Below the pieces are notes generated by a model that saw nothing but the letters and a program-made list of their open reading frames with translations, had not been told where the DNA came from and made no database searches. Below are positions 3,733 to 64,000 of a DNA stretch of 64,000 bases, in pieces. Each line of letters starts with the position of its first letter. The first letter of the stretch is position 1. Source of the DNA: a virus; IMG/VR virus record IMGVR_UViG_3300032298_001038, positions 134,313 through 198,312 of that record; one strand, given 5' to 3'. Made by a program: the position numbers and the translations under genes.

Positions 3733-4745
3733 GACGTGGCCTCTTGCAAGCGCATAAGTCGCCGCGGTCCGGCGGGTTCTGCGGAAATTCGTCGGGCTGG
3801 GAAGTTGGCAACTTGGCCATTTGGCATAATCTGGGCAGCACCAAGTCGGCCGCCGTATTGTGCCAGCAGGTTTAAATAGTTTTGCAAACTTGCCCGCGTG
3901 CGAAATTCTTGATGCTGAAACACGCTGCGCTGGTTTAGCGTAACAATATTGTCAGCCATGGTGTGGTAATCGCCGTACTCAACAGAAAAGATAGAGTGAA
4001 TCAGCACGACGTGATCTCGCAGCACAATCGGGTACGAAATAGACGACTGATCGGCGACTACGGCAAAGTCTCGCAAATTAACGGCCGCGGTCTGGTGGTG
4101 ATTGTTGATCTGGCTACGGATTAGTTGGGCTTGATTTTCAACCAGCGCGCGGCCGCGAATGATGCCGTGGATGACAGAGCAATCGCCTTTAATCTCGATC
4201 ATGCCGACGGACCCGCCGTCTAGCGTGCTGCGCACAACCAGCGCATTGCCGCCGATACGGACGTCGCCCGTCATCGTCGTTGAAAATACTTGCGCGCTTT
4301 CGTTTACGTACGCCGTGTGATAAAGCCGGCTTGTACCAGACACGTGCGCTTGACCAAAAATGCGCGCGTTGCCCTCAACGATTGTCGTGTCGCGTACAAC
4401 TGCTTTGCCGTATATCTGGCCGCTGTTGCGCAGCGTAACGCCGCCCGATACGACGGCGCTGCCAGAAATACGGGACGTGCCTTCGAGGCGCACAGGCCCC
4501 TTGACTGTCGCGCGGTTAAATATCTCGCATCGCCGGCCGATATAAACACAGTCGTCGACTGCCGCGGTGTCTGCAACCCAGCCGCCGCCGTTGTCGTGCT
4601 TGTGCGCGGGCACGCGGCCAGAACCGTCTTTGAAATCGTGTTTTGGCTGCCTTGGTTTTCGTTTCTTGATAACCTTTATTTCCTCCAACTGCTCAATTGG
4701 AGGTGTGATTACAGGAGGTGCTTCTACGATTTCTGTCATTTTCAA
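3729..4745 (-). CDS. Left-handed beta-helix (hexapeptide-repeat) protein
   Basis: HKHDNGGGWVADTA start followed by many V/I-x-G-x-A-x hexapeptide-like repeats. Confidence 0.7.
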   Translation of the reverse strand: MKMTEIVEAPPVITPPIEQLEEIKVIKKRKPRQPKHDFKDGSGRVPAHKHDNGGGWVADTAAVDDCVYIGRRCEIFNRATVKGPVRLEGTSRISGSAVVSGGVTLRNSGQIYGKAVVRDTTIVEGNARIFGQAHVSGTSRLYHTAYVNESAQVFSTTMTGDVRIGGNALVVRSTLDGGSVGMIEIKGDCSVIHGIIRGRALVENQAQLIRSQINNHHQTAAVNLRDFAVVADQSSISYPIVLRDHVVLIHSIFSVEYGDYHTMADNIVTLNQRSVFQHQEFRTRASLQNYLNLLAQYGGRLGAAQIMPNGQVANFPARRISAEPAGPRRLMRLQEATS

Positions 4746-5692
4746 CTCATGGGCAGCACGCGCCGCCTCGGGGCATTCGTGATCAAACTGTCCAGCGCCG
4801 TCTTGACCGTCGTCATCTGCTGCGTCAGGTTCTGCCGCAGGTCATTGTTTTTGCGCAAGTCCTTGGCGTCGATGCCAGCGACAAGGTCATTTGCCTGCTG
4901 AATCAACCCTTCCAACTGCGCGTTGGATCGCACGTTCATGCGGCGGAAGTTTTCATAGAACTCCTTGAAGTTCTCAATCGCCGACGCCTTGAACGTCTTT
5001 TTAGTACCATCAGGCTCGTCGGTCAGCCGCTCGACCAGATGCGCGATCATTTCCTGCAACTGCTCAGCAAACGCGTTTTCGGCCATGATAACCGCAGTCT
5101 CGAACCGCTGCTGAACCCGTGACTGCTCCTGCGTGTACAACTCGGGGTTGAACGTCATCAGGTAGTTCGGCGGCTCGACAGGCGGATACTCCCATTTGAT
5201 ATCAAAGACGCCTTCAAGGGTAGGCGGGTAGTCGTTGGGATTAAACAGGTCACCCAGTTTTTCCCGTGCCGCTTCCTTGATGGACTCGTACTCCAACTGG
5301 AGGTTGGCAGCCGCTGCGGCAAGTTGCTCCTTGAACTCCCGCATCTTCGCTTCAAATGCTGCGATCTCGTCTTGCTTGATCAACCGAATACCTTCCTGCG
5401 GATAGGGCAGGGTCATGCTGCGCCAATAACTCGACGCCTGACTCTTGATTGCGGTCAGGACGCGGTAGGTGTTGTTCTTGGTGTCGATCAGCCGCTTGGA
5501 CGCGGTAACCAGATCAGTGGCCGCGTGAAAAGTATCGGCCGCCTGCTTGGTCTGCGTGTCGGACAACTTGCGCTGCGTGCCCAGCCACGAGAACGACAAC
5601 TTGACGGCGCCCATCGTCTGGCGCAGTTCATTCGCCGTTTCGACGACACCTTCGTTCGCTACTTCAATCGTGTTTTCTGTTTCTGTTGACAT
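4742..5692 (-). CDS. Helical protein, DUF3150-like (start re-picked at MSTETEN)
   Basis: Motifs VKLSFSWLG, YWRSMTLPYP and GIRLI plus coiled-coil segments resemble the DUF3150-type partner of AAA/DUF1257 clusters. Confidence 0.6.
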   Translation of the reverse strand: MSTETENTIEVANEGVVETANELRQTMGAVKLSFSWLGTQRKLSDTQTKQAADTFHAATDLVTASKRLIDTKNNTYRVLTAIKSQASSYWRSMTLPYPQEGIRLIKQDEIAAFEAKMREFKEQLAAAAANLQLEYESIKEAAREKLGDLFNPNDYPPTLEGVFDIKWEYPPVEPPNYLMTFNPELYTQEQSRVQQRFETAVIMAENAFAEQLQEMIAHLVERLTDEPDGTKKTFKASAIENFKEFYENFRRMNVRSNAQLEGLIQQANDLVAGIDAKDLRKNNDLRQNLTQQMTTVKTALDSLITNAPRRRVLPMS

Positions 5693-5694
5693 GT

Positions 5695-5910
5695 TTAGTT
5701 GAGTTTCGTCCTTTGTCGTGGCGTTAAATTTTCGTGCGGAGGTTTGTGCGACGGTTGCGGGGCCACTATGCGCCCACACGCCAACTCCAAATAACAGTCT
5801 TTGCACTTTGGCTGTCCGTCAATTTTCCATGCCGGATCAGGCCGGCACTGGTCGTCGCTTTCGTCAATAATCTCGCCGCACGATGTGCAGATTGTTTTTG
5901 GAAGTGCCAT
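5695..5910 (-). CDS. Small zinc-finger-like protein (71 aa)
   Basis: CTSCG...CKDC pairs; stop 2 nt before the next start. Confidence 0.6.
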   Translation of the reverse strand: MALPKTICTSCGEIIDESDDQCRPDPAWKIDGQPKCKDCYLELACGRIVAPQPSHKPPHENLTPRQRTKLN

Positions 5911-5936
5911 GTTCGCGTTACTGCGGGATGAGTGTG

Positions 5937-6248
5937 TTAATCTTTCACGTGTTGTGAGGGTCGTTCAGACGCGTTTGGTAAACCAAACGATTTCATCTTC
6001 TCGTCCCAGTTTTCATATTCGCCCTCGCGGCGCATCTTGCGGCCAATGCGCGCTACGCCCTCGTTGACGCTTTCTGGCGCAACAGGGCGGCGAATGTCTA
6101 GGACTTGCTCATCTGGCAGGTCGTCGATCACCGCTTGAACGGCTGTCCAGTCTTCGCCGTCAATGAACGCCATCGTGGCGGTGCCTAAGCGGTTTGGGTA
6201 GAGGATAACCGCGTATCCGTCTTCAAGCATCTTGTCAATGTCAGACAT
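5937..6248 (-). CDS. Hypothetical protein (103 aa)
   Basis: GGAG Shine-Dalgarno 6 nt upstream of ATG; globular composition. Confidence 0.7.
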   Translation of the reverse strand: MSDIDKMLEDGYAVILYPNRLGTATMAFIDGEDWTAVQAVIDDLPDEQVLDIRRPVAPESVNEGVARIGRKMRREGEYENWDEKMKSFGLPNASERPSQHVKD

Positions 6249-6265
6249 AGTCGTCTCCGGAATTT

Positions 6266-6532
6266 TGACTGCCGTTACGCGGCAGTCAGTACGGGCGCCG
6301 GCGCTGTGTCATGTTTTTTTGCAACAAAACTCGACATTGGGCCGACCAGATTGACTGCCGTCACGTGGCAGTCAAAATTGACTGCCGTCACGTGGCAGTC
6401 AAAAATCGACTCCCGGGTTTGGGGGAGTCTGACTCCCGGTTTTGCCGGAGTCAAAATTGACTGCCGGGTTTGGGGGAGTCTGACTCCCGGTTTTGCCGGA
6501 GTCAAAATTGACTGCCGTCACGTGGCAGTCAA
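6266..6532. repeat. Array of eight short inverted-repeat units (GACTGCC and GACTCC types)
   Basis: TTGACTGCC-GTCACGT-GGCAGTCAA at 6351, 6378 and 6508; variant at 6266; GACTCC-type units at 6408, 6430, 6459 and 6481; 6408-6458 is repeated at 6459-6509 with one mismatch. Confidence 0.95.
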
Positions 6533-6601
6533 AGTTTGCTTTTCGGTCGCTTTTCACTCGCTTTTCACTTCGTAGTGAAATCGCAAGGATTAGCGAAAAA
6601 C

Positions 6602-57330: not shown

Positions 57331-60300
57331 TCAGACAACCAAGTGCAGTTCAATGTTGTTGAGCGGCGCCGGAACGACGAGGTCCAGCACAATCTCAATC
57401 CGGTCCTTCAGCAACGGATGGACTTGCAGTTTCCGGATTTCGCCGGAGATCAACTGCGAGCCGAGTTCTTCCGTGTTGCCATTGTTGGACAGGAAGTTGA
57501 TGATCGTCTCAACCTCGAACTTCAGACGACGCAACATGCCGGGCTGCACGTTGGTGCGGCCGATGAACGGACGCAGCCGACGCAAGAACAGGTACGACAT
57601 CGAGTCCACATTCCGGCGGATCATCTCTTCCCGACGATTCAGGTCGAGATTGTCCGTCGTCAGAGCGTGCCGTGTGTGCGGGGTGCCGTCGCGGTCTTCC
57701 GTGACGATCCACACGCCGGCTTCCGCCATGCGGTTCAGTTGCGTTTCGTTGAAATACTTGTAGGACCGCGTGAAGTCGTCGAAACCGGCGACCTCAACGT
57801 TTGTCAGCGGCTGGTGGGGCACCACGCCGGAGACGAGACCAGCAAGCGCAGCAGCGAGGTAGTAGCCGGGCTGGGTCGTGCCAGCCTCGCCTACCTGATC
57901 GGGCCACACGGCGCACACGCGACGGTTCGACAGCGAACCGGCTTGCTGCGCAATGTCTTCCGCGATCTCGTTGCGGTTCCGGTTGTGCCAGATTTCAACG
58001 CGCTGAGCCTGCGTGACGGGCGCGTCAGCGCCGGTGTACAACCGCAGCGAGTTTTCCGACAGAACCTGATCAACAACGTACTCTTCGTACTGCTCTTCGC
58101 CGTACTGGTCGACAGAGAAGTTGTAACGGACGATGTCGCCGGGCTGGACTTGGTTGGTAATGAAGTAGCCCTTGGTATCGTTCGTGCCCGGCGGGACTTG
58201 CAGCAGCGTGTACTGCGAGCCTGTCGCGTTCGGGTCGTCCGCCAGCGTGGCAAGTACTTCTTCCATCTCGTTGTCCAGCACGCCGCCGATCAGCGCGCCG
58301 TTGCCAACCAGAAGTTGCTTCGGTTGCGCTTTGAGCGCGAAGAAGCCGGCCTTCCAGTTGTTGGCAATCTCGTTCGACTCGCCGCCGATGTGGGCAGCCC
58401 AGAGGTTCTGGACCATGCGGTCGAAGGTCATCGGGACGAGGTTATACATGTCGTCGCGACCCTTGATCCGCTCAAGAACCTGCACCCAACTGTCGAGGTC
58501 GGGGCCAGTGATCTTGCCGGTCTCGTCGAACTCTTCCGGATGCGCCACCGCGGTGTACTTCACAACCGTGCCGTTGCTATTGGAGAGCGCCTTGTAAACG
58601 CCCCACTTCAGCGGGTTGTCAGGGTGGAGTTGGCCAGCAAGATCGTCGAGGTCGGCCACGTCGCTGATCGAGTTAACCTCGTCAGCCAGTTCGGCCAGCC
58701 ACTCGCGATATTCGGCGTACACGCGACCCTTCTCAACCGGCAGCGGCTGCTCAACACCGGTGGCTGTCCACTCGGGGTGATAAGCCGTGATACCTTCTTG
58801 AATGCAAATCTGGGTGTCTTCGAACCAGAAGTTCGTAAGGCCAGCGGTTTCCGGACGGACGCGCGAAATCTGGATGTCGTCACGGATGAACAACTTCAGA
58901 TCAAGCGGCACGTTGCGCTCGGTGTTGGCTTCGTCGTCGCGCACGAAGTAGATCGGCGAATCGCCGACAACAACCGTGCCCGAGTTCGTCACTACCCAGC
59001 CAGAGCCGCCGTACGTGGTACCGCCAACGACCGGCACGTAAACATTCTTTACGATTTCCGACGTTTGGTTGAAGTCCGCAGAACGAACCCACGAGGGTGT
59101 TTCGCCGTCAGCCACAACGTACACGCCGTTTTCGGTCGGGTCCGTCTGGCCCACAACAAGCACGCGGTCGCCGTCTTCGAGAACTACGTCGTCGATCGTC
59201 TGCGCGCCGGAGAGAACAACGTTCTCGTCAGCCACAGCCGCAACCGACGTTTTAACAGTCGAAGCACGGACGTACGTGTCGCGCATCTCGCTCGGGAGGT
59301 CATCGCGGAGGATGAGTTTCCGCACCGGACCAGCCTTGCTCGACACGACGGCCACGTAGAACTTGTCGCCCTTGCGCAGGCCGACGTTCAGGTAAGCCTG
59401 AGCCGAAGCGCCTGTGCCGCCGCCACTTGTAAACGTTACCGACGGCGGATTGTAATAGCCGCTACCGGGGTTGGTGATGGTGATACCGTTAACAACGCCA
59501 CCTCCGCTGATCGTGCACGTGGCTGTGGCCTGCGTGCCGGTCGGATCGTCGGGAGCGCTGAGCGTCACGGTCGGGGCTACGCTATAGGTGCTGCCGCCGG
59601 TTTGCAGTTCGATCGACTTCACCGGACCAGAGACCTGAAGAACAATCTTCACGCCATTGGTGCCGATGCCGATCTCGCCGCCGTTCTCAACAACCTCGGT
59701 CGGGCCAGAGGCGTCGAGACCCTTGACGGTGCGCGCCGTTACTTCGGGGAATCCAAGCGTATCGGCCGCCACGGCGTCGAACTCGCCGCCCTTGGTGACT
59801 TCAACGATGTAAACGTCGTTCTTCGCGCCGTTGTACGCGCCGGCAATGTCGCCGTCGGCTTGCACGGTGTAAACGCCGTCCGCGGCCGAATCAGCGTCGG
59901 CAGCGTAGAATTCCTGAGCAACAGCCACGACCCACTTCTGGCCAACGACAAAAGTATCATAAGCCACGTCGTTCGAAGCCGCGGCGGCAATGCACGCCTC
60001 GGTGTCGAGCACGTTGAACTTGACCTTCAGGCCGCGTGTACCGATCTCGGTCCACTCGTCCATGTCGTTCGGCACAACTTCTTCTTGATCGTCACGGCCG
60101 CTGGCGCTGCGCACGCGCAGGCGGGCGGCGTTGCAACCCGAAATGGTGCTCTTGATGACCTGAATCGTGTACTCTTCTTCGACGTCGCCGGACGCGAGGC
60201 CGTTATACAACGAGCCGTCGAGTTCAACGAGTTTGACGCAGTTTTCCTTACCCGCGACTTGCAGGTAGTTGTTGTCAGCGTCGGGTTGACCGTCGTCCTC

Positions 60301-60897
60301 GACACCCGGGTTGGGGATACCGCAATAAGCAGCCGTTGTGGGCTGGTTGTCCTCATCGACCTGCGCCGGCTTGATGAGCGAGTCAACAAGGTCGCTGGCG
60401 AAACCGACAACTTCAGTCCACAGTTCAACTTCCGTGCACTCGCCTTCTTGATCGACAACCGTGCGGAGGTAGGCCACGTCGCCGGCCTTCACGTCGCGAT
60501 CATAGAAGTCGCTGCTGCGGGGGTAAGCCGAAGTGTTGGACTTGAAAGAGAGGTCGTCAGACTGAATCCAGTTGAACTTACCAGTCACGTGAGTGATGGT
60601 TGTATAAGTGCTCTGAAGGTTGTGCTCGAAATACTTGAGCAGCGCCTTGTCCATGTAAACCTTGGCGTAGGGCAGGTCAACAATCGAACCGGGCCGACGT
60701 TGCGGCCAACCGTAGCACACGTCATTAAGACGGTCGTACTCGCCAAGAAGAATCGTCTTCTTCTCGTCGAGATCACTGTAACGGTGAAGAATGGCGTGCG
60801 GGCCAGCGATGTGGGCGCGCAGCGGTTCCGTGATTTCCGTCGGGACGATCCGGAACTCTTGGAAGACTAATACTTGTGGCTTGATGTAACTCGACAT
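57331..60897 (-). CDS. Contractile tail sheath protein with inserted domains (1188 aa)
   Basis: C-terminal sheath-like GYYLAAALAGL...PHQPLTN, EEMIRRNVDS...FIGRTN...PAPLNNIELHLVV; CGGAGG Shine-Dalgarno; followed by the tube gene. Confidence 0.85.
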   Translation of the reverse strand: MSSYIKPQVLVFQEFRIVPTEITEPLRAHIAGPHAILHRYSDLDEKKTILLGEYDRLNDVCYGWPQRRPGSIVDLPYAKVYMDKALLKYFEHNLQSTYTTITHVTGKFNWIQSDDLSFKSNTSAYPRSSDFYDRDVKAGDVAYLRTVVDQEGECTEVELWTEVVGFASDLVDSLIKPAQVDEDNQPTTAAYCGIPNPGVEDDGQPDADNNYLQVAGKENCVKLVELDGSLYNGLASGDVEEEYTIQVIKSTISGCNAARLRVRSASGRDDQEEVVPNDMDEWTEIGTRGLKVKFNVLDTEACIAAAASNDVAYDTFVVGQKWVVAVAQEFYAADADSAADGVYTVQADGDIAGAYNGAKNDVYIVEVTKGGEFDAVAADTLGFPEVTARTVKGLDASGPTEVVENGGEIGIGTNGVKIVLQVSGPVKSIELQTGGSTYSVAPTVTLSAPDDPTGTQATATCTISGGGVVNGITITNPGSGYYNPPSVTFTSGGGTGASAQAYLNVGLRKGDKFYVAVVSSKAGPVRKLILRDDLPSEMRDTYVRASTVKTSVAAVADENVVLSGAQTIDDVVLEDGDRVLVVGQTDPTENGVYVVADGETPSWVRSADFNQTSEIVKNVYVPVVGGTTYGGSGWVVTNSGTVVVGDSPIYFVRDDEANTERNVPLDLKLFIRDDIQISRVRPETAGLTNFWFEDTQICIQEGITAYHPEWTATGVEQPLPVEKGRVYAEYREWLAELADEVNSISDVADLDDLAGQLHPDNPLKWGVYKALSNSNGTVVKYTAVAHPEEFDETGKITGPDLDSWVQVLERIKGRDDMYNLVPMTFDRMVQNLWAAHIGGESNEIANNWKAGFFALKAQPKQLLVGNGALIGGVLDNEMEEVLATLADDPNATGSQYTLLQVPPGTNDTKGYFITNQVQPGDIVRYNFSVDQYGEEQYEEYVVDQVLSENSLRLYTGADAPVTQAQRVEIWHNRNRNEIAEDIAQQAGSLSNRRVCAVWPDQVGEAGTTQPGYYLAAALAGLVSGVVPHQPLTNVEVAGFDDFTRSYKYFNETQLNRMAEAGVWIVTEDRDGTPHTRHALTTDNLDLNRREEMIRRNVDSMSYLFLRRLRPFIGRTNVQPGMLRRLKFEVETIINFLSNNGNTEELGSQLISGEIRKLQVHPLLKDRIEIVLDLVVPAPLNNIELHLVV

Positions 60898-61715: not shown

Positions 61716-61875
61716 CTTCGGATTCCTTTTTTGGCCAAAACGCCGTAACTGAGTTCATTTTCTCTTTTTTACTGCCCGGGCTAAAAGGCAATTGAATCTT
61801 GGGCAGCATCTTTAACGGCTTACCGCGCAATTTAATTTTGTCGAGTTCGGGTTTTGGGTCGCTCATATGTCCCAA
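61693..61875 (-). CDS. Small basic hypothetical protein
   Basis: Fills the gap between the two neck genes, overlapping both. Confidence 0.4.
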   Translation of the reverse strand: MGHMSDPKPELDKIKLRGKPLKMLPKIQLPFSPGSKKEKMNSVTAFWPKKESEDDGLPES

Positions 61876-63167
61876 AATCCTTTTTCGTCAGGCGTCGGAG
61901 GTGACGGGCGGCCGGGAATGCGAGTTTTAATCTTGCGCGTCATCGGAAACTGATGCGCTTGCGCCGGCGGTTCTTCTGGCGCTTCTTTAACGCCCATGAC
62001 CGGCGGGTAGGTCATTTGCATCGCGGCTTCTGGCGGTTCAACTTCTAATTCGTATGTGTCAGGGCCGTACTCGCCGGGCTTCTCGTACAAAATAACATAA
62101 TCACCCACGTCGAGTCGCAGCGATTGAAGCCACCGACCGTTTACGCGCGTCTTTGTCTTTCCGACCGCCAGAGTTCGAGCGATCGTTGTGCCGTGCTCGT
62201 CAAACTCGGCTTGTGTAAACACGTAAACGTCTGCGCCTTCTACCGCGCACCCTGCCGCCGTGGTATAAATCAGCGCGTCAGTGCCCGTGTAATCGTGGTC
62301 GACCACAATTTGTCCGCAACCCACGATTGGTAATGTCGGGCCACGGCGAGCCGCAGGCTCTCCGCCGACTTCAAGCGCGTAAACGGCGTGATTGAACGGC
62401 AACAGCCCCATGCGCACTTGATACACCAGCGGCACGCCCCGAAGCGCGGCAGTTACTTGAATTGTATCTACGGTCCAACGCTCATCTGACGAGCCGTTGA
62501 CCCAGATGTCATATTTATTCAGTGCCGGAAAGCCGATGACGCGCGCGTTGACGTACGGGTTCTCGCGCGTAGTTCCCTTTACATTACTGTCGACCTGCTC
62601 TTGGATTACCTGCGGCGACAAGTCCCAGCATTGCATAGCCACGGGCGGGTGATAACCGGTTTCAAACCCCGTGCCGCTACAAATCGGGCAGTCGGCGTCG
62701 GTGAGTTCTTCTGTTAACTGGTCACGGCAGCGTTTGCACGGCGTACCGTAGCGCAGAGGCTTAATTAAATACCCCGGCACAGCCGCCAACCGATTCCGCA
62801 ACTGTTCTTTGCGGATAATCTCTCGGGCCAGTAACCAATCGCGCTCAGTTAACTCGCCGTAGCAACTGGCGGCCTGCGAAACGTAAGTGCCAGTCGGAGT
62901 GGTCAGGACGACGCGGTAGTGCGACGTTATGTCGTACCCAGTTTCGCGCCACTCCGGGTCGAGCGCAAAATAAGAGTCTACAACTGGCGCGCCGATGTTG
63001 GTCCAGTCGCTGGCATCCCGCAGGCCGGTTCTACCAAACTGGAGTTGGAAGACGTACGGGCCTTCATCTCTAAATAGACGCTCTAACTGCCACCACACGC
63101 GGGAAACGCCGCGAGTCATGTGGTCTACAGATACACGGCGAAATGGGAAAATGCGTGGTTGGCTCAT
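61863..63167 (-). CDS. Head-tail neck protein with zinc finger and C-terminal Ig-like domain
   Basis: PCKRC...CPICSGTGFETGY zinc finger; C-terminal GCAVEGADVYV...TRVNGRW...LDVGDYVILYEKPGEYG beta-sandwich. Confidence 0.6.
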   Translation of the reverse strand: MSQPRIFPFRRVSVDHMTRGVSRVWWQLERLFRDEGPYVFQLQFGRTGLRDASDWTNIGAPVVDSYFALDPEWRETGYDITSHYRVVLTTPTGTYVSQAASCYGELTERDWLLAREIIRKEQLRNRLAAVPGYLIKPLRYGTPCKRCRDQLTEELTDADCPICSGTGFETGYHPPVAMQCWDLSPQVIQEQVDSNVKGTTRENPYVNARVIGFPALNKYDIWVNGSSDERWTVDTIQVTAALRGVPLVYQVRMGLLPFNHAVYALEVGGEPAARRGPTLPIVGCGQIVVDHDYTGTDALIYTTAAGCAVEGADVYVFTQAEFDEHGTTIARTLAVGKTKTRVNGRWLQSLRLDVGDYVILYEKPGEYGPDTYELEVEPPEAAMQMTYPPVMGVKEAPEEPPAQAHQFPMTRKIKTRIPGRPSPPTPDEKGFWDI

Positions 63168-63173
63168 AATTTG

Positions 63174-63179
63174 ATTATA
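63174..63179 (-). promoter_or_regulatory. Perfect -10 element, probable leaderless start of the neck gene
   Basis: TATAAT, 6 nt, then ATG 63167; no Shine-Dalgarno space. Confidence 0.55.
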
Positions 63180-63196
63180 CCCGCGCTTTGATATCT

Positions 63197-64000
63197 AAAA
63201 AAAAGAGGTGCGATGTGCGCCGGGTGGGAGAGGCTAGCCATCTCTCCCACCCGGCGTCCCCTGTTAACAACCTGCTTTCGCAGGCTCGCGATTAACAGGC
63301 TCGTTGTTCGCCGGCCATGACGGCAACGCCTCGGCGCGCTTAACATAGTATGCGCGTCCAAGGGGTACAACGAGAAAACACGCCTGCGGCGACTAGGGCC
63401 TTCAGGCTTGGCGTAAAGCGTCGCGTACGACGCCCGGATTCTACATTAAACGCGCCTGCCTATCCATTTTGCGCGCATAACTACAAATCCGGAGTACTGT
63501 GTATTACGGAGAACACTTACCGGCGTTTCGCTTTCGCGACGTCCCGGCTTTGCGCTCCGATATCCCTGTGGATGCAGCACCAGCCACCCCGAAAAGTACC
63601 GCAACCGACGAGGCTGCGGCTTGTGTCCACGGGCGACTTTTCGATCGCCTGCGCTCGTTAGTTTCCGTCGCTGAATCTATCTTCCCGCCAACGAACCTGA
63701 ATGCGAGAAGATAGATCGGCCCGCGCAAATTACCTTTTTAGTAACTCCGCGGGCTGTATTTACGTAAAGTTCATAAGACACCTCCTTTCGGCGTCGTACG
63801 TTGGGCAGATTACTTCACAGCCAAGCCGAAACCGTGAAGCATGGATTCCGTCGTGGTGCAACCAGACACCATCGACAACTTTTTCATCAACCCGGCAGAC
63901 CAGTCCGGATTGAGGAAAGAACTGGATTCCTCCAGCGCCGCATTACGCCGACCCAACGAGGGCCGGTAATTATGCAGCCAGACGACTCGGAGCACCGTCT
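63197..64000 (-). ncRNA. Large structured non-coding RNA candidate, probably extending beyond the window
   Basis: More than 12 helices, GAAA tetraloops and G-U pairs valid only on the minus strand; ends in a perfect 15 bp hairpin (63218-63256) and a T8 run. Confidence 0.6.

Follow-up and report, generated by a model that had tools for sequence, protein, structure and literature searches.

Introduction

To our knowledge, only about a dozen classes of bacterial and phage non-coding RNA exceed 500 nucleotides (nt), and each solved large RNA (RNase P, group II introns, HEARO/omega RNA, GOLLD, ROOL and the OLE assemblies) has brought new biology. The element analysed here is a structured RNA encoded on the minus strand of a 64,000-nt stretch of viral DNA, positions 134,313 to 198,312 of the IMG/VR record IMGVR_UViG_3300032298_001038. 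This whole stretch, which is the final 64 kb of the 198,312-bp record, is called the window. Like ROOL (about 580 nt) and GOLLD (about 800 nt), which are phage- or prophage-borne, the RNA is large, intricate, supported by covariation and of unknown biological function. GOLLD and ROOL RNAs form cages (PMC12286853).

The maximal extent of the RNA, from the stop codon of the upstream open reading frame (ORF) to the end of the U-run, is 63197-63809 on the minus strand. The fold stability, the 16 homologues and the covariation make it nearly certain that the DNA encodes a genuine structured RNA of about 0.6 kb, which is conserved and belongs to a new family. The result is in accordance with the first-pass annotation of this DNA, which had proposed a selected, strand-specific, large structured non-coding RNA from the sequence of the window.

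Homologous sequences and covariation

The gap between the genes was compared by blastn with 50,697 phage records and gave no match, and tblastn of the upstream 473-aa protein against the same records gave none either. The nearest isolated phages share only a 29%-identical capsid protein, and Salmonella phage Arash does not carry the module near its capsid gene. Related contigs were reached through homologues of the flanking proteins and through a conserved 16-mer in the IMG/VR, JGI, ENA and Logan assemblies; about 93 contigs carry the upstream protein. This search revealed 16 distinct homologous gap sequences of 484-701 nt, located at the same place in related phage contigs. The carriers of the RNA family form a clade of uncultured tailed phages of about 170-210 kb, some of them from freshwater-lake samples. 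Between the window and the relative L004 the flanks are 71-74% identical, whereas the gap gave no blastn alignment at all. Alignment of the gaps with MAFFT showed short invariant blocks with variable stems between them, and the RNA is kept among relatives whose flanking protein is only 36-40% identical.

RNAalifold on five sequences first predicted 115 pairs, and compensatory double changes were seen in 56 of these. Three segment alignments of 15-16 sequences were then scored against a control in which the pairing partners were slid by 1-3 columns, together with 500 shuffles. The 5' domain (36 pairs) showed 85.2% of cells paired against 36-53% for the slid partners, with double changes in 29 pairs, and the 3' domain (42 pairs) showed 86.3% against 37-48%, likewise with double changes in 29 pairs; none of the 500 shuffles was as good for either domain. 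The centre comprised 18 pairs, of which 11 had double changes, and 84.8% of its cells were paired compared to 27-45% for the slid partners. Here 0 of 500 shuffles were as good by cells paired and by covariation score, and 6 of 500 by the number of pairs with double changes. Taken over the three segments, compensatory changes were found in 69 of the 96 counted pairs. The alignments were sequence-based and hence understate the pairing in the divergent members L037, L164, L167 and L168. The helices are thus maintained by compensatory substitutions.

Fold stability, strand and coding potential

Folding of the exact 613-nt RNA gave a minimum free energy (MFE) of -279.9 kcal/mol; its dinucleotide shuffles reached -226.9 +/- 7.4, and none of 20 was as stable (z -7.2). 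In the same comparison a 613-nt piece of a neighbouring coding gene gave z +1.55, and the fold of the relative L004 gave z -6.3. For the whole 804-nt region flagged in the first-pass annotation, the minus strand folded better (-375.7, z -10.6) than the plus strand (-316.5, z -6.6). The alignments contain 135 G.U cells against 29 A.C cells, which indicates that the RNA is read from the gene-sense strand, that is, the minus strand in the window. The helices named in the first-pass annotation were all found on the minus strand at the coordinates given there, and a folding energy well below shuffled controls was also obtained.

The possibility that the gap holds no functional RNA, being a decayed gene or a long spacer with chance terminator hairpins, was considered at this point. 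The region lies between two transcription units and contains ORFs of 70-130 codons in several frames, as such a reading would have it; however, neither the frame nor the strand of these ORFs is constant. The closest pairs of sequences differ mainly by indels of 1-2 nt, which shift the frame (14 indels between the window and L033, 13 of them of 1 or 2 nt). The tblastn similarity of the gaps is equal in several frames and on both strands, and being independent of frame it merely reflects nucleotide conservation. The RNA region is non-coding. The excess of G.U over A.C, the compensatory changes and the retention of the RNA across divergent flanking genes also speak against decay or chance, and the probability left for this alternative is negligible.

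Locus and limits of the RNA

The two ends of the virus record share a 123-bp repeat, so that the window edge joins the start of the contig. This 'direct terminal repeat' (window 63878-64000, identical to positions 1-123 of contig C1) lies inside the gene of the 473-aa protein, and it therefore marks a circular or permuted assembly with no physical genome end at that point. The 473-aa ORF, on the minus strand, starts at C1:1354, runs through the repeat and has its stop codon at window 63812-63810. Window 63810-63998 (minus strand) translates to the last 62 residues of this ORF, including a tail that is conserved in the relatives (...KLSMV.GC....ML.GF..A). Because of this conserved tail, 63810-64000 is assigned as coding sequence outside the RNA; it is the C-terminal part of an ORF with a DxSxS motif, possibly vWA-like, and it sets the upstream boundary. 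The gene-free gap is 63168-63809 (642 nt).

On the other side of the RNA, a promoter-like box, AGATATCA-N9-TATAAT (63168-63196, minus strand, with TATAAT at 63174-63179), forms the downstream boundary and is followed by a 434-aa ORF with a CxxC...CxxC insert (61863-63167, minus strand). These limits alter the first-pass annotation in its dimensions: it had claimed an RNA of at least 800 nt in a region without a credible gene, with hairpins continuing to the edge of the window. The RNA in fact measures about 600 nt, and the outermost hairpins lie in the coding sequence of the 473-aa protein.

A gap in a densely coded, uncultured phage can thus hide a large RNA gene that is overlooked by gene callers and by Rfam. 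Public gene calls place a wrong start codon or short spurious ORFs within the RNA in some relatives (L161 at 4414, L165 at 3983-4159, L168 at 4198-4392).

Helices of the RNA

The RNA folds into at least 12 helices, including a three-way junction, GNRA-capped arms, an invariant internal loop and a candidate pseudoknot. All features of this section lie on the minus strand. The P0 hairpin (63719-63754) is present only in the subclade of the window and L033. The P1 hairpin (63673-63717) has 12 pairs, 11 with double changes. The loop of P1 (63688-63697) can pair with the strand just before P3 (63653-63661), and both sides co-vary among the relatives, as UUGUUCCGU/ACGGAACAA, UUUUUCCGU/ACGGAAAAA, GCUCCGA/UCGGAGY, GUUCGUUGG/CUAACGAGC, GGUUCUGU/ACAGAAUC and GCUUCGU/ACGAAGC. 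The energies of these duplexes against shuffled partners (mean z -1.2) are not significant alone, so the contact is listed as a candidate pseudoknot or alternative pairing, resting on covariation judged by eye.

The P3 hairpin (63632-63650) showed 90% of cells paired and double changes in 6 of 9 pairs. It is followed by a conserved joiner, GGACA(N)AAG, and the P4 hairpin (joiner and hairpin 63599-63628), in which 95% of cells are paired and 8 of 9 pairs have double changes. The P5 hairpin (63568-63590) is helix 4 of the 5' domain alignment. P6 (63520-63547) has an outer stem that covaries, with 96% of cells paired, an internal loop and a GNRA tip, which in the window is capped by GAAA (63528-63539). 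The internal loop, GGGACGUC opposite GAAACGCC, is identical in 15 of 15 sequences.

The P7 domain (63434-63492) consists of a long-range outer pairing CCGGAUU/AAUCCGG around a hairpin, with conserved CGUAG and GUAAA, and 6 of its 7 outer pairs show double changes. The P8 hairpin (63418-63433) occurs only in the window/L033 subclade and is compensated in L033, while all five pairs of the P9 hairpin (63382-63407) have double changes. The three-way junction of P10, P10a and P11 (63300-63374) is the most conserved core. P10, a long-range helix, is CUCGUUGU/ACAACGAG in the window and CCCGUUGU/ACAACGGG, CCGCUUGU/ACAAGCGG, CUUGGUGG/CCACCGAG, CUUAAUGG/CCAUUAAG, CCCACC/GGUGGG or CUCGCC/GGCGAG in relatives; the hairpin P10a is variable, and in P11, a hairpin whose loop has 7 nt, CCG/CGG is conserved. 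The P12 hairpin with its GNRA tip, followed by a conserved GGGGA (63260-63299), has double changes in 6 of 7 pairs. GNRA tetraloops cap P6 and P12 in many members. In the most divergent relatives, L037 (at about 5016-5031) and L164 (at about 4460-4475), a small additional hairpin, GAC-GAAA-GUC or GACC-GCGG-GGUC, stands between P11 and the 3' strand of P10, and the terminator region is longer.

Search against known RNA families and reach of the family

The whole window was searched with Rfam 15 at gathering scores, which returned two tRNAs only, both elsewhere. The region 62900-64000 at E <= 10 gave only chance-level miRNA and snoRNA rows, eight relatives at E <= 0.1 gave no match, and ARAGORN found no tmRNA and no tRNA in 62500-64000. 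RNase P RNA and tmRNA were rejected on these results. Group I and group II introns were also rejected, with no Rfam match, the element lying between two complete ORFs and no reverse transcriptase or maturase among the neighbours. GOLLD (RF01998) was matched neither at the gathering score nor at E <= 10 in 62900-64000 nor at E <= 0.1 in the eight relatives, and ROOL (RF03087) gave no match in the same scans. HEARO / IscB omega RNA (RF02033) had no Rfam match and the 434-aa neighbour has no Pfam or PHROG family; for a Ro60-Y RNA particle, no TROVE domain was found even at E 5 and no Y RNA or YrlA model matched. The earlier failure to see an RNase P, tmRNA or group I/II core is thereby confirmed, no known intron or family being matched in the window and eight relatives. 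The earlier suggestion of a GOLLD/ROOL class or a new one stands in its second half. Searches of the literature gave no description of the RNA, although it may be listed as an unnamed candidate in the catalogue of IMG/VR structured RNAs (PMC10690425).

The strictly invariant internal loop of 4x4 type, the pseudoknot candidate and the complex junction could point to a ribozyme or RNA-processing element, for instance a new self-cleaving RNA that frees itself from the operon message. No Rfam model of hammerhead, twister, twister-sister, pistol, hatchet, HDV-like or hairpin ribozymes matched in the window region or in the eight relatives, nor did group I/II or RNase P models at permissive E-values; intron-like exon junctions are also missing. 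A role as ribozyme or processing element is accordingly regarded as very unlikely.

A covariance model of the P10-P11 core (R1) scored 47-85 bits in 14 relatives. The pattern GGGACGUC-N6-36-GAAACGCC was found in more than 118 stretches of viral contigs besides the known relative L011, and those screened (L041-L157) were rejected by R1 as chance. A tighter 18-base pattern gave 59 stretches in 185,579 species genomes (one per prokaryote species), all of which R1 rejected, and neither a prophage copy nor a hint of the host was seen. As far as these scans reach, the RNA appears to be confined to this phage clade.

Shine-Dalgarno site and mini-ORF at the 5' edge

The 5' edge of the RNA carries an extended Shine-Dalgarno (SD) sequence, GAAAGGAGG (63781-63789, minus strand). 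An SD-type sequence stands at the aligned position in 16 of 17 relatives, 8-78 nt past the upstream stop codon and with a start codon 4-7 nt behind it; it is GAAAGGAGG or a near match, with a degenerate form, AAAGGAAU, in L159. The start codon opens an ORF of 3-5 codons, again in 16 of 17 relatives; in the window it is ATG AAC TTT ACG TAA (MNFT*, 63760-63774, minus strand). Nine relatives encode MPFP* with synonymous changes (CCG/CCC/CCA, TTT/TTC, CCC/CCT), and the other peptides are MNFT (window), MFT, MTWP, MNGP, MHDP, MNEH, MGTQ and MHWPR. Of the 16 mini-ORFs, 12 have Pro as their final sense codon, while the peptide of the window ends in Thr. Termination is known to be slow behind a Pro codon, with peptidyl-tRNA problems. 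A few to about 25 nt separate the mini-ORF stop codon from the first helix.

In the MFE fold of the window RNA, a closing helix of 12 pairs joins the SD region to the 3' tail, and 11 bp of it, two of them G.U, form one run. This helix is absent in the closest relative, L033, and is therefore not claimed as part of the structure.

3' end and promoter-like boxes

In the window the 3' end signal (63197-63256, minus strand) consists of a GC-rich hairpin of 15 bp (63218-63256), which a spacer of 13 nt separates from U8 (63197-63204). All 16 relatives end in U7-9 behind one or two GC-rich hairpins, and the hairpin abuts the U-run in every inspected relative except the window and L033, which share the 13-nt spacer; termination in these two is thus less certain. 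The perfect 15-bp stem and T8 described in the first-pass annotation are both present, but they do not form a simple abutting terminator.

Directly behind the U-run an AG[N]TAT[CT] box is present in 16 of 16 relatives, and many of them have TAnAAT behind it and an ATG close by. No SD sequence precedes the 434-aa gene, whose ATG lies 6 nt past TATAAT; the same layout, often with 6-7 nt, was seen in at least eight fetched relatives. This short distance to the TAnAAT box suggests that the message of the 434-aa gene is leaderless. Another promoter-like box, at contig 2338, shortly precedes the AAA gene, and none is found between the stop codon of the 473-aa ORF and the RNA. With no such box preceding the RNA itself, the layout points to the RNA being made as the end of the operon transcript, which is considered fairly probable.

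The motif of T-run and TAGATATCA behind hairpins recurs at about 10 further intergenic sites of the genome. A GC-rich hairpin with a T-run and TAGATATCA, or a sequence close to it, stands at about 12 places between genes, almost always on the minus strand: window 63189-63204, the 47943 region and the 24039 region, and contig C1 2338, 53184, 59009, 59884, 60505, 61717, 62363, 62840 and 93442. The sites are of two flavours, one with TAnAAT near an ATG and the other with CTAAATA then GCATAT. The recurrent motif resembles a cassette of terminator and promoter that would belong to a transcription programme of the phage itself. Outside the window, at contig C1 59009-62840, six copies stand 500-1200 nt apart with a GC-rich hairpin before each, and this cluster of short transcription units might contain small genes or further RNAs.

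Neighbouring genes

The gene order is the same in every locus examined: an AAA_5 ATPase of about 274 aa, a protein of 459-507 aa and the gap of 500-700 nt. A homologue of the 434-aa ORF comes next in all loci but L039 and L159; in these two another small gene comes next, and the RNA remains beside the gene that precedes it. The small gene (L039 4517-4950, L159 1676-2000) is inserted between the RNA and the homologue of the 434-aa gene and has its own CTAAATA-type promoter box and a strong SD sequence. The ATPase was assigned by PF07728 AAA_5 (E 1.9e-12), a call that was also obtained in all fetched relatives.

The 473-aa protein has an invariant D-x-S-P-S after a predicted beta strand and an alternating beta/alpha region. 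It gave no Pfam match even at E 5 and no PHROG, and its profile against PDB sequences returned only low-complexity matches. Leads from the atlas went to DUF2201, VWA, DUF58 and VWA_CoxE clusters. The AlphaFold model was poor (predicted local distance difference test, pLDDT, 57) and Foldseek found nothing at E <= 0.001; the non-significant Foldseek rows were rich in vWA/MIDAS domains, and the wide VIA search was dominated by a helical hairpin. It is plausible but unproven that this protein is a vWA-like partner of the MoxR-type ATPase. A Gln/Pro/Gly-rich linker (contig C1 about 700-1050, residues about 105-170), whose length varies in relatives, separates the Cys-containing N-terminal part of the protein from the conserved C-terminal half. 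The 434-aa protein had no Pfam or PHROG family, an empty profile search against PDB sequences and an AlphaFold model (pLDDT 38) too poor for a structure search.

Upstream of the RNA are head genes (PHROG major head protein, contig 5641-6582), and downstream is a 1188-aa tail-sheath-like protein (57331-60897). The first-pass annotation had raised a virion or assembly role from the place beside head-neck genes; this position near head and tail genes says nothing, alone, about the role of the RNA, which forms the 3' end of the AAA_5/DxSxS operon.

Proposed mechanism and role

The various observations are best explained by a new RNA family at the end of an operon, delimited by a ribosome cap and released as a discrete RNA acting in trans, an account held with slightly better than even confidence. 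The RNA would be transcribed as the last part of the AAA_5 / 473-aa DxSxS operon, from the promoter-like box at contig 2338. A ribosome would load on the near-perfect SD sequence, read the mini-ORF of 3-5 codons and dwell at its stop codon. So parked, it would act as an insulator between the upstream message and the RNA fold and would shield the new 5' end, in the manner of STAB-SD and hbs-type stabilisers. In the hbs-type 5' stabiliser, a bound or initiating ribosome blocks decay from the 5' end (PMC5737220). The layout makes such a ribosome cap at the 5' edge conceivable, at a little less than even confidence. The GC-rich hairpin and the U-run would set and protect the 3' end. The predicted product, a discrete, long-lived RNA of about 0.6 kb, would act in trans, either as a structural component or within a ribonucleoprotein, which is our best guess for its role. 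The likeliest partners would be the AAA+ ATPase and the DxSxS protein from the same transcript, although this particular partnership is doubtful.

Some of the results weigh against this account. The vWA assignment is unproven, given the missing Pfam match, the pLDDT of 57 and the non-significant Foldseek rows, and the RNA may stand next to the AAA+/DxSxS genes for no other reason than the strict gene order of the phage clade. The mini-ORF is missing in L160, the SD sequence is degenerate in L159 and the peptide sequence differs across subclades. At the 3' end, the U8 of the window lies 13 nt past the hairpin and a terminator consensus scan made no call there. The duplex energies of the candidate pseudoknot belong with these points.

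The same operon transcript with its terminator-like end would also suit a purely cis-acting 3' untranslated region, which stabilises or tunes the AAA+/DxSxS message, or read-through into the tail-side genes, without any function in trans. The pairing of the SD region with the 3' tail in the window MFE fold recalls the 5'/3' interactions of Bacillus subtilis hbs mRNA (PMC5737220). Such a role would not need an element of about 600 nt with at least 12 covarying helices, invariant loops and GNRA tips, which far exceeds what known 3' stabilisers require; furthermore, the closing helix is not kept in L033 and the next gene has its own promoter-like box. This alternative is therefore judged unlikely.

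In a bolder form of the trans-acting account, the RNA may be the RNA subunit of a MoxR-type AAA+/vWA ribonucleoprotein remodeller working in virion assembly or counter-defence, delimited and stabilised by a terminating ribosome parked on the 4-codon mini-ORF, or else a third family of self-assembling ornate RNA. This proposal is tentative, and if true it would represent a new type of large functional RNA. A preprint describes a phage MoxR ATPase that is needed to overcome a predicted defence system (10.1101/2025.11.20.689424), which leaves counter-defence as open a role for the RNA as assembly.

Comparison with known systems

The succession of an AAA_5 gene and a DxSxS-protein gene resembles the MoxR AAA+/vWA modules (RavA-ViaA, NorQ-NorD, CbbQ-CbbO and phage N4 gp24-gp25), with the difference that the vWA fold of the protein of the window is only putative. 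We know of no described MoxR AAA+/vWA module that carries a large RNA. An RNA gene beside a possible vWA/MIDAS protein gene is also found for Ro60 (Rsr, TROVE + vWA) with its Y RNAs, and this likeness hints at a ribonucleoprotein; in the present case a TROVE domain is missing, Y RNAs are 5-6 times smaller than the RNA, and the putative partner is paired with an AAA_5 ATPase. The phi29 pRNA, of about 174 nt and from a different phage group, forms its own Rfam family and has a role in virion assembly. Both pRNA and the present RNA are phage-encoded and structured; the pRNA family gave no match, and no link to portal or terminase was seen.

The STAB-SD of Bacillus mRNAs is a sequence complementary to the 3' end of 16S rRNA at the 5' edge of the stabilised RNA. 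The present RNA likewise carries GAAAGGAGG, fully complementary to the 3' end of 16S rRNA, at its 5' edge. In contrast to STAB-SD, the SD sequence here is followed by a true start codon that opens an ORF of 3-5 codons, and it lies inside an operon transcript rather than at a primary 5' end; stabilisation is predicted from sequence. The lambda bar minigenes have two codons and no attached large RNA. A very short ORF behind a strong SD sequence, mostly ending in Pro, is the feature shared with these minigenes and with TnaC-type Pro-stop pauses; the peptide of the window differs in ending in Thr, and any stalling or drop-off here is putative.

The likeness to GOLLD and ROOL raises the alternative of RNA-only assembly, in which homo-oligomeric particles of a third, unrelated family would form independently of the neighbouring genes. 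The size, the phage origin, the many peripheral helices and the GNRA loops resemble both RNAs, and the partner proteins proposed above are putative. The lack of similarity to the GOLLD and ROOL models speaks against this alternative, and so does the context: ROOL and GOLLD are usually separate genes beside tRNA genes, whereas the present RNA ends a protein-coding operon and starts with an SD sequence and a mini-ORF. Assembly of the RNA without its neighbours is on these grounds distinctly unlikely. With this RNA, the few large structured RNAs that still await a function gain a new class. Its pairing of a mini-ORF at the 5' edge with a fixed place behind an AAA+ ATPase operon is unusual and offers experimental handles.

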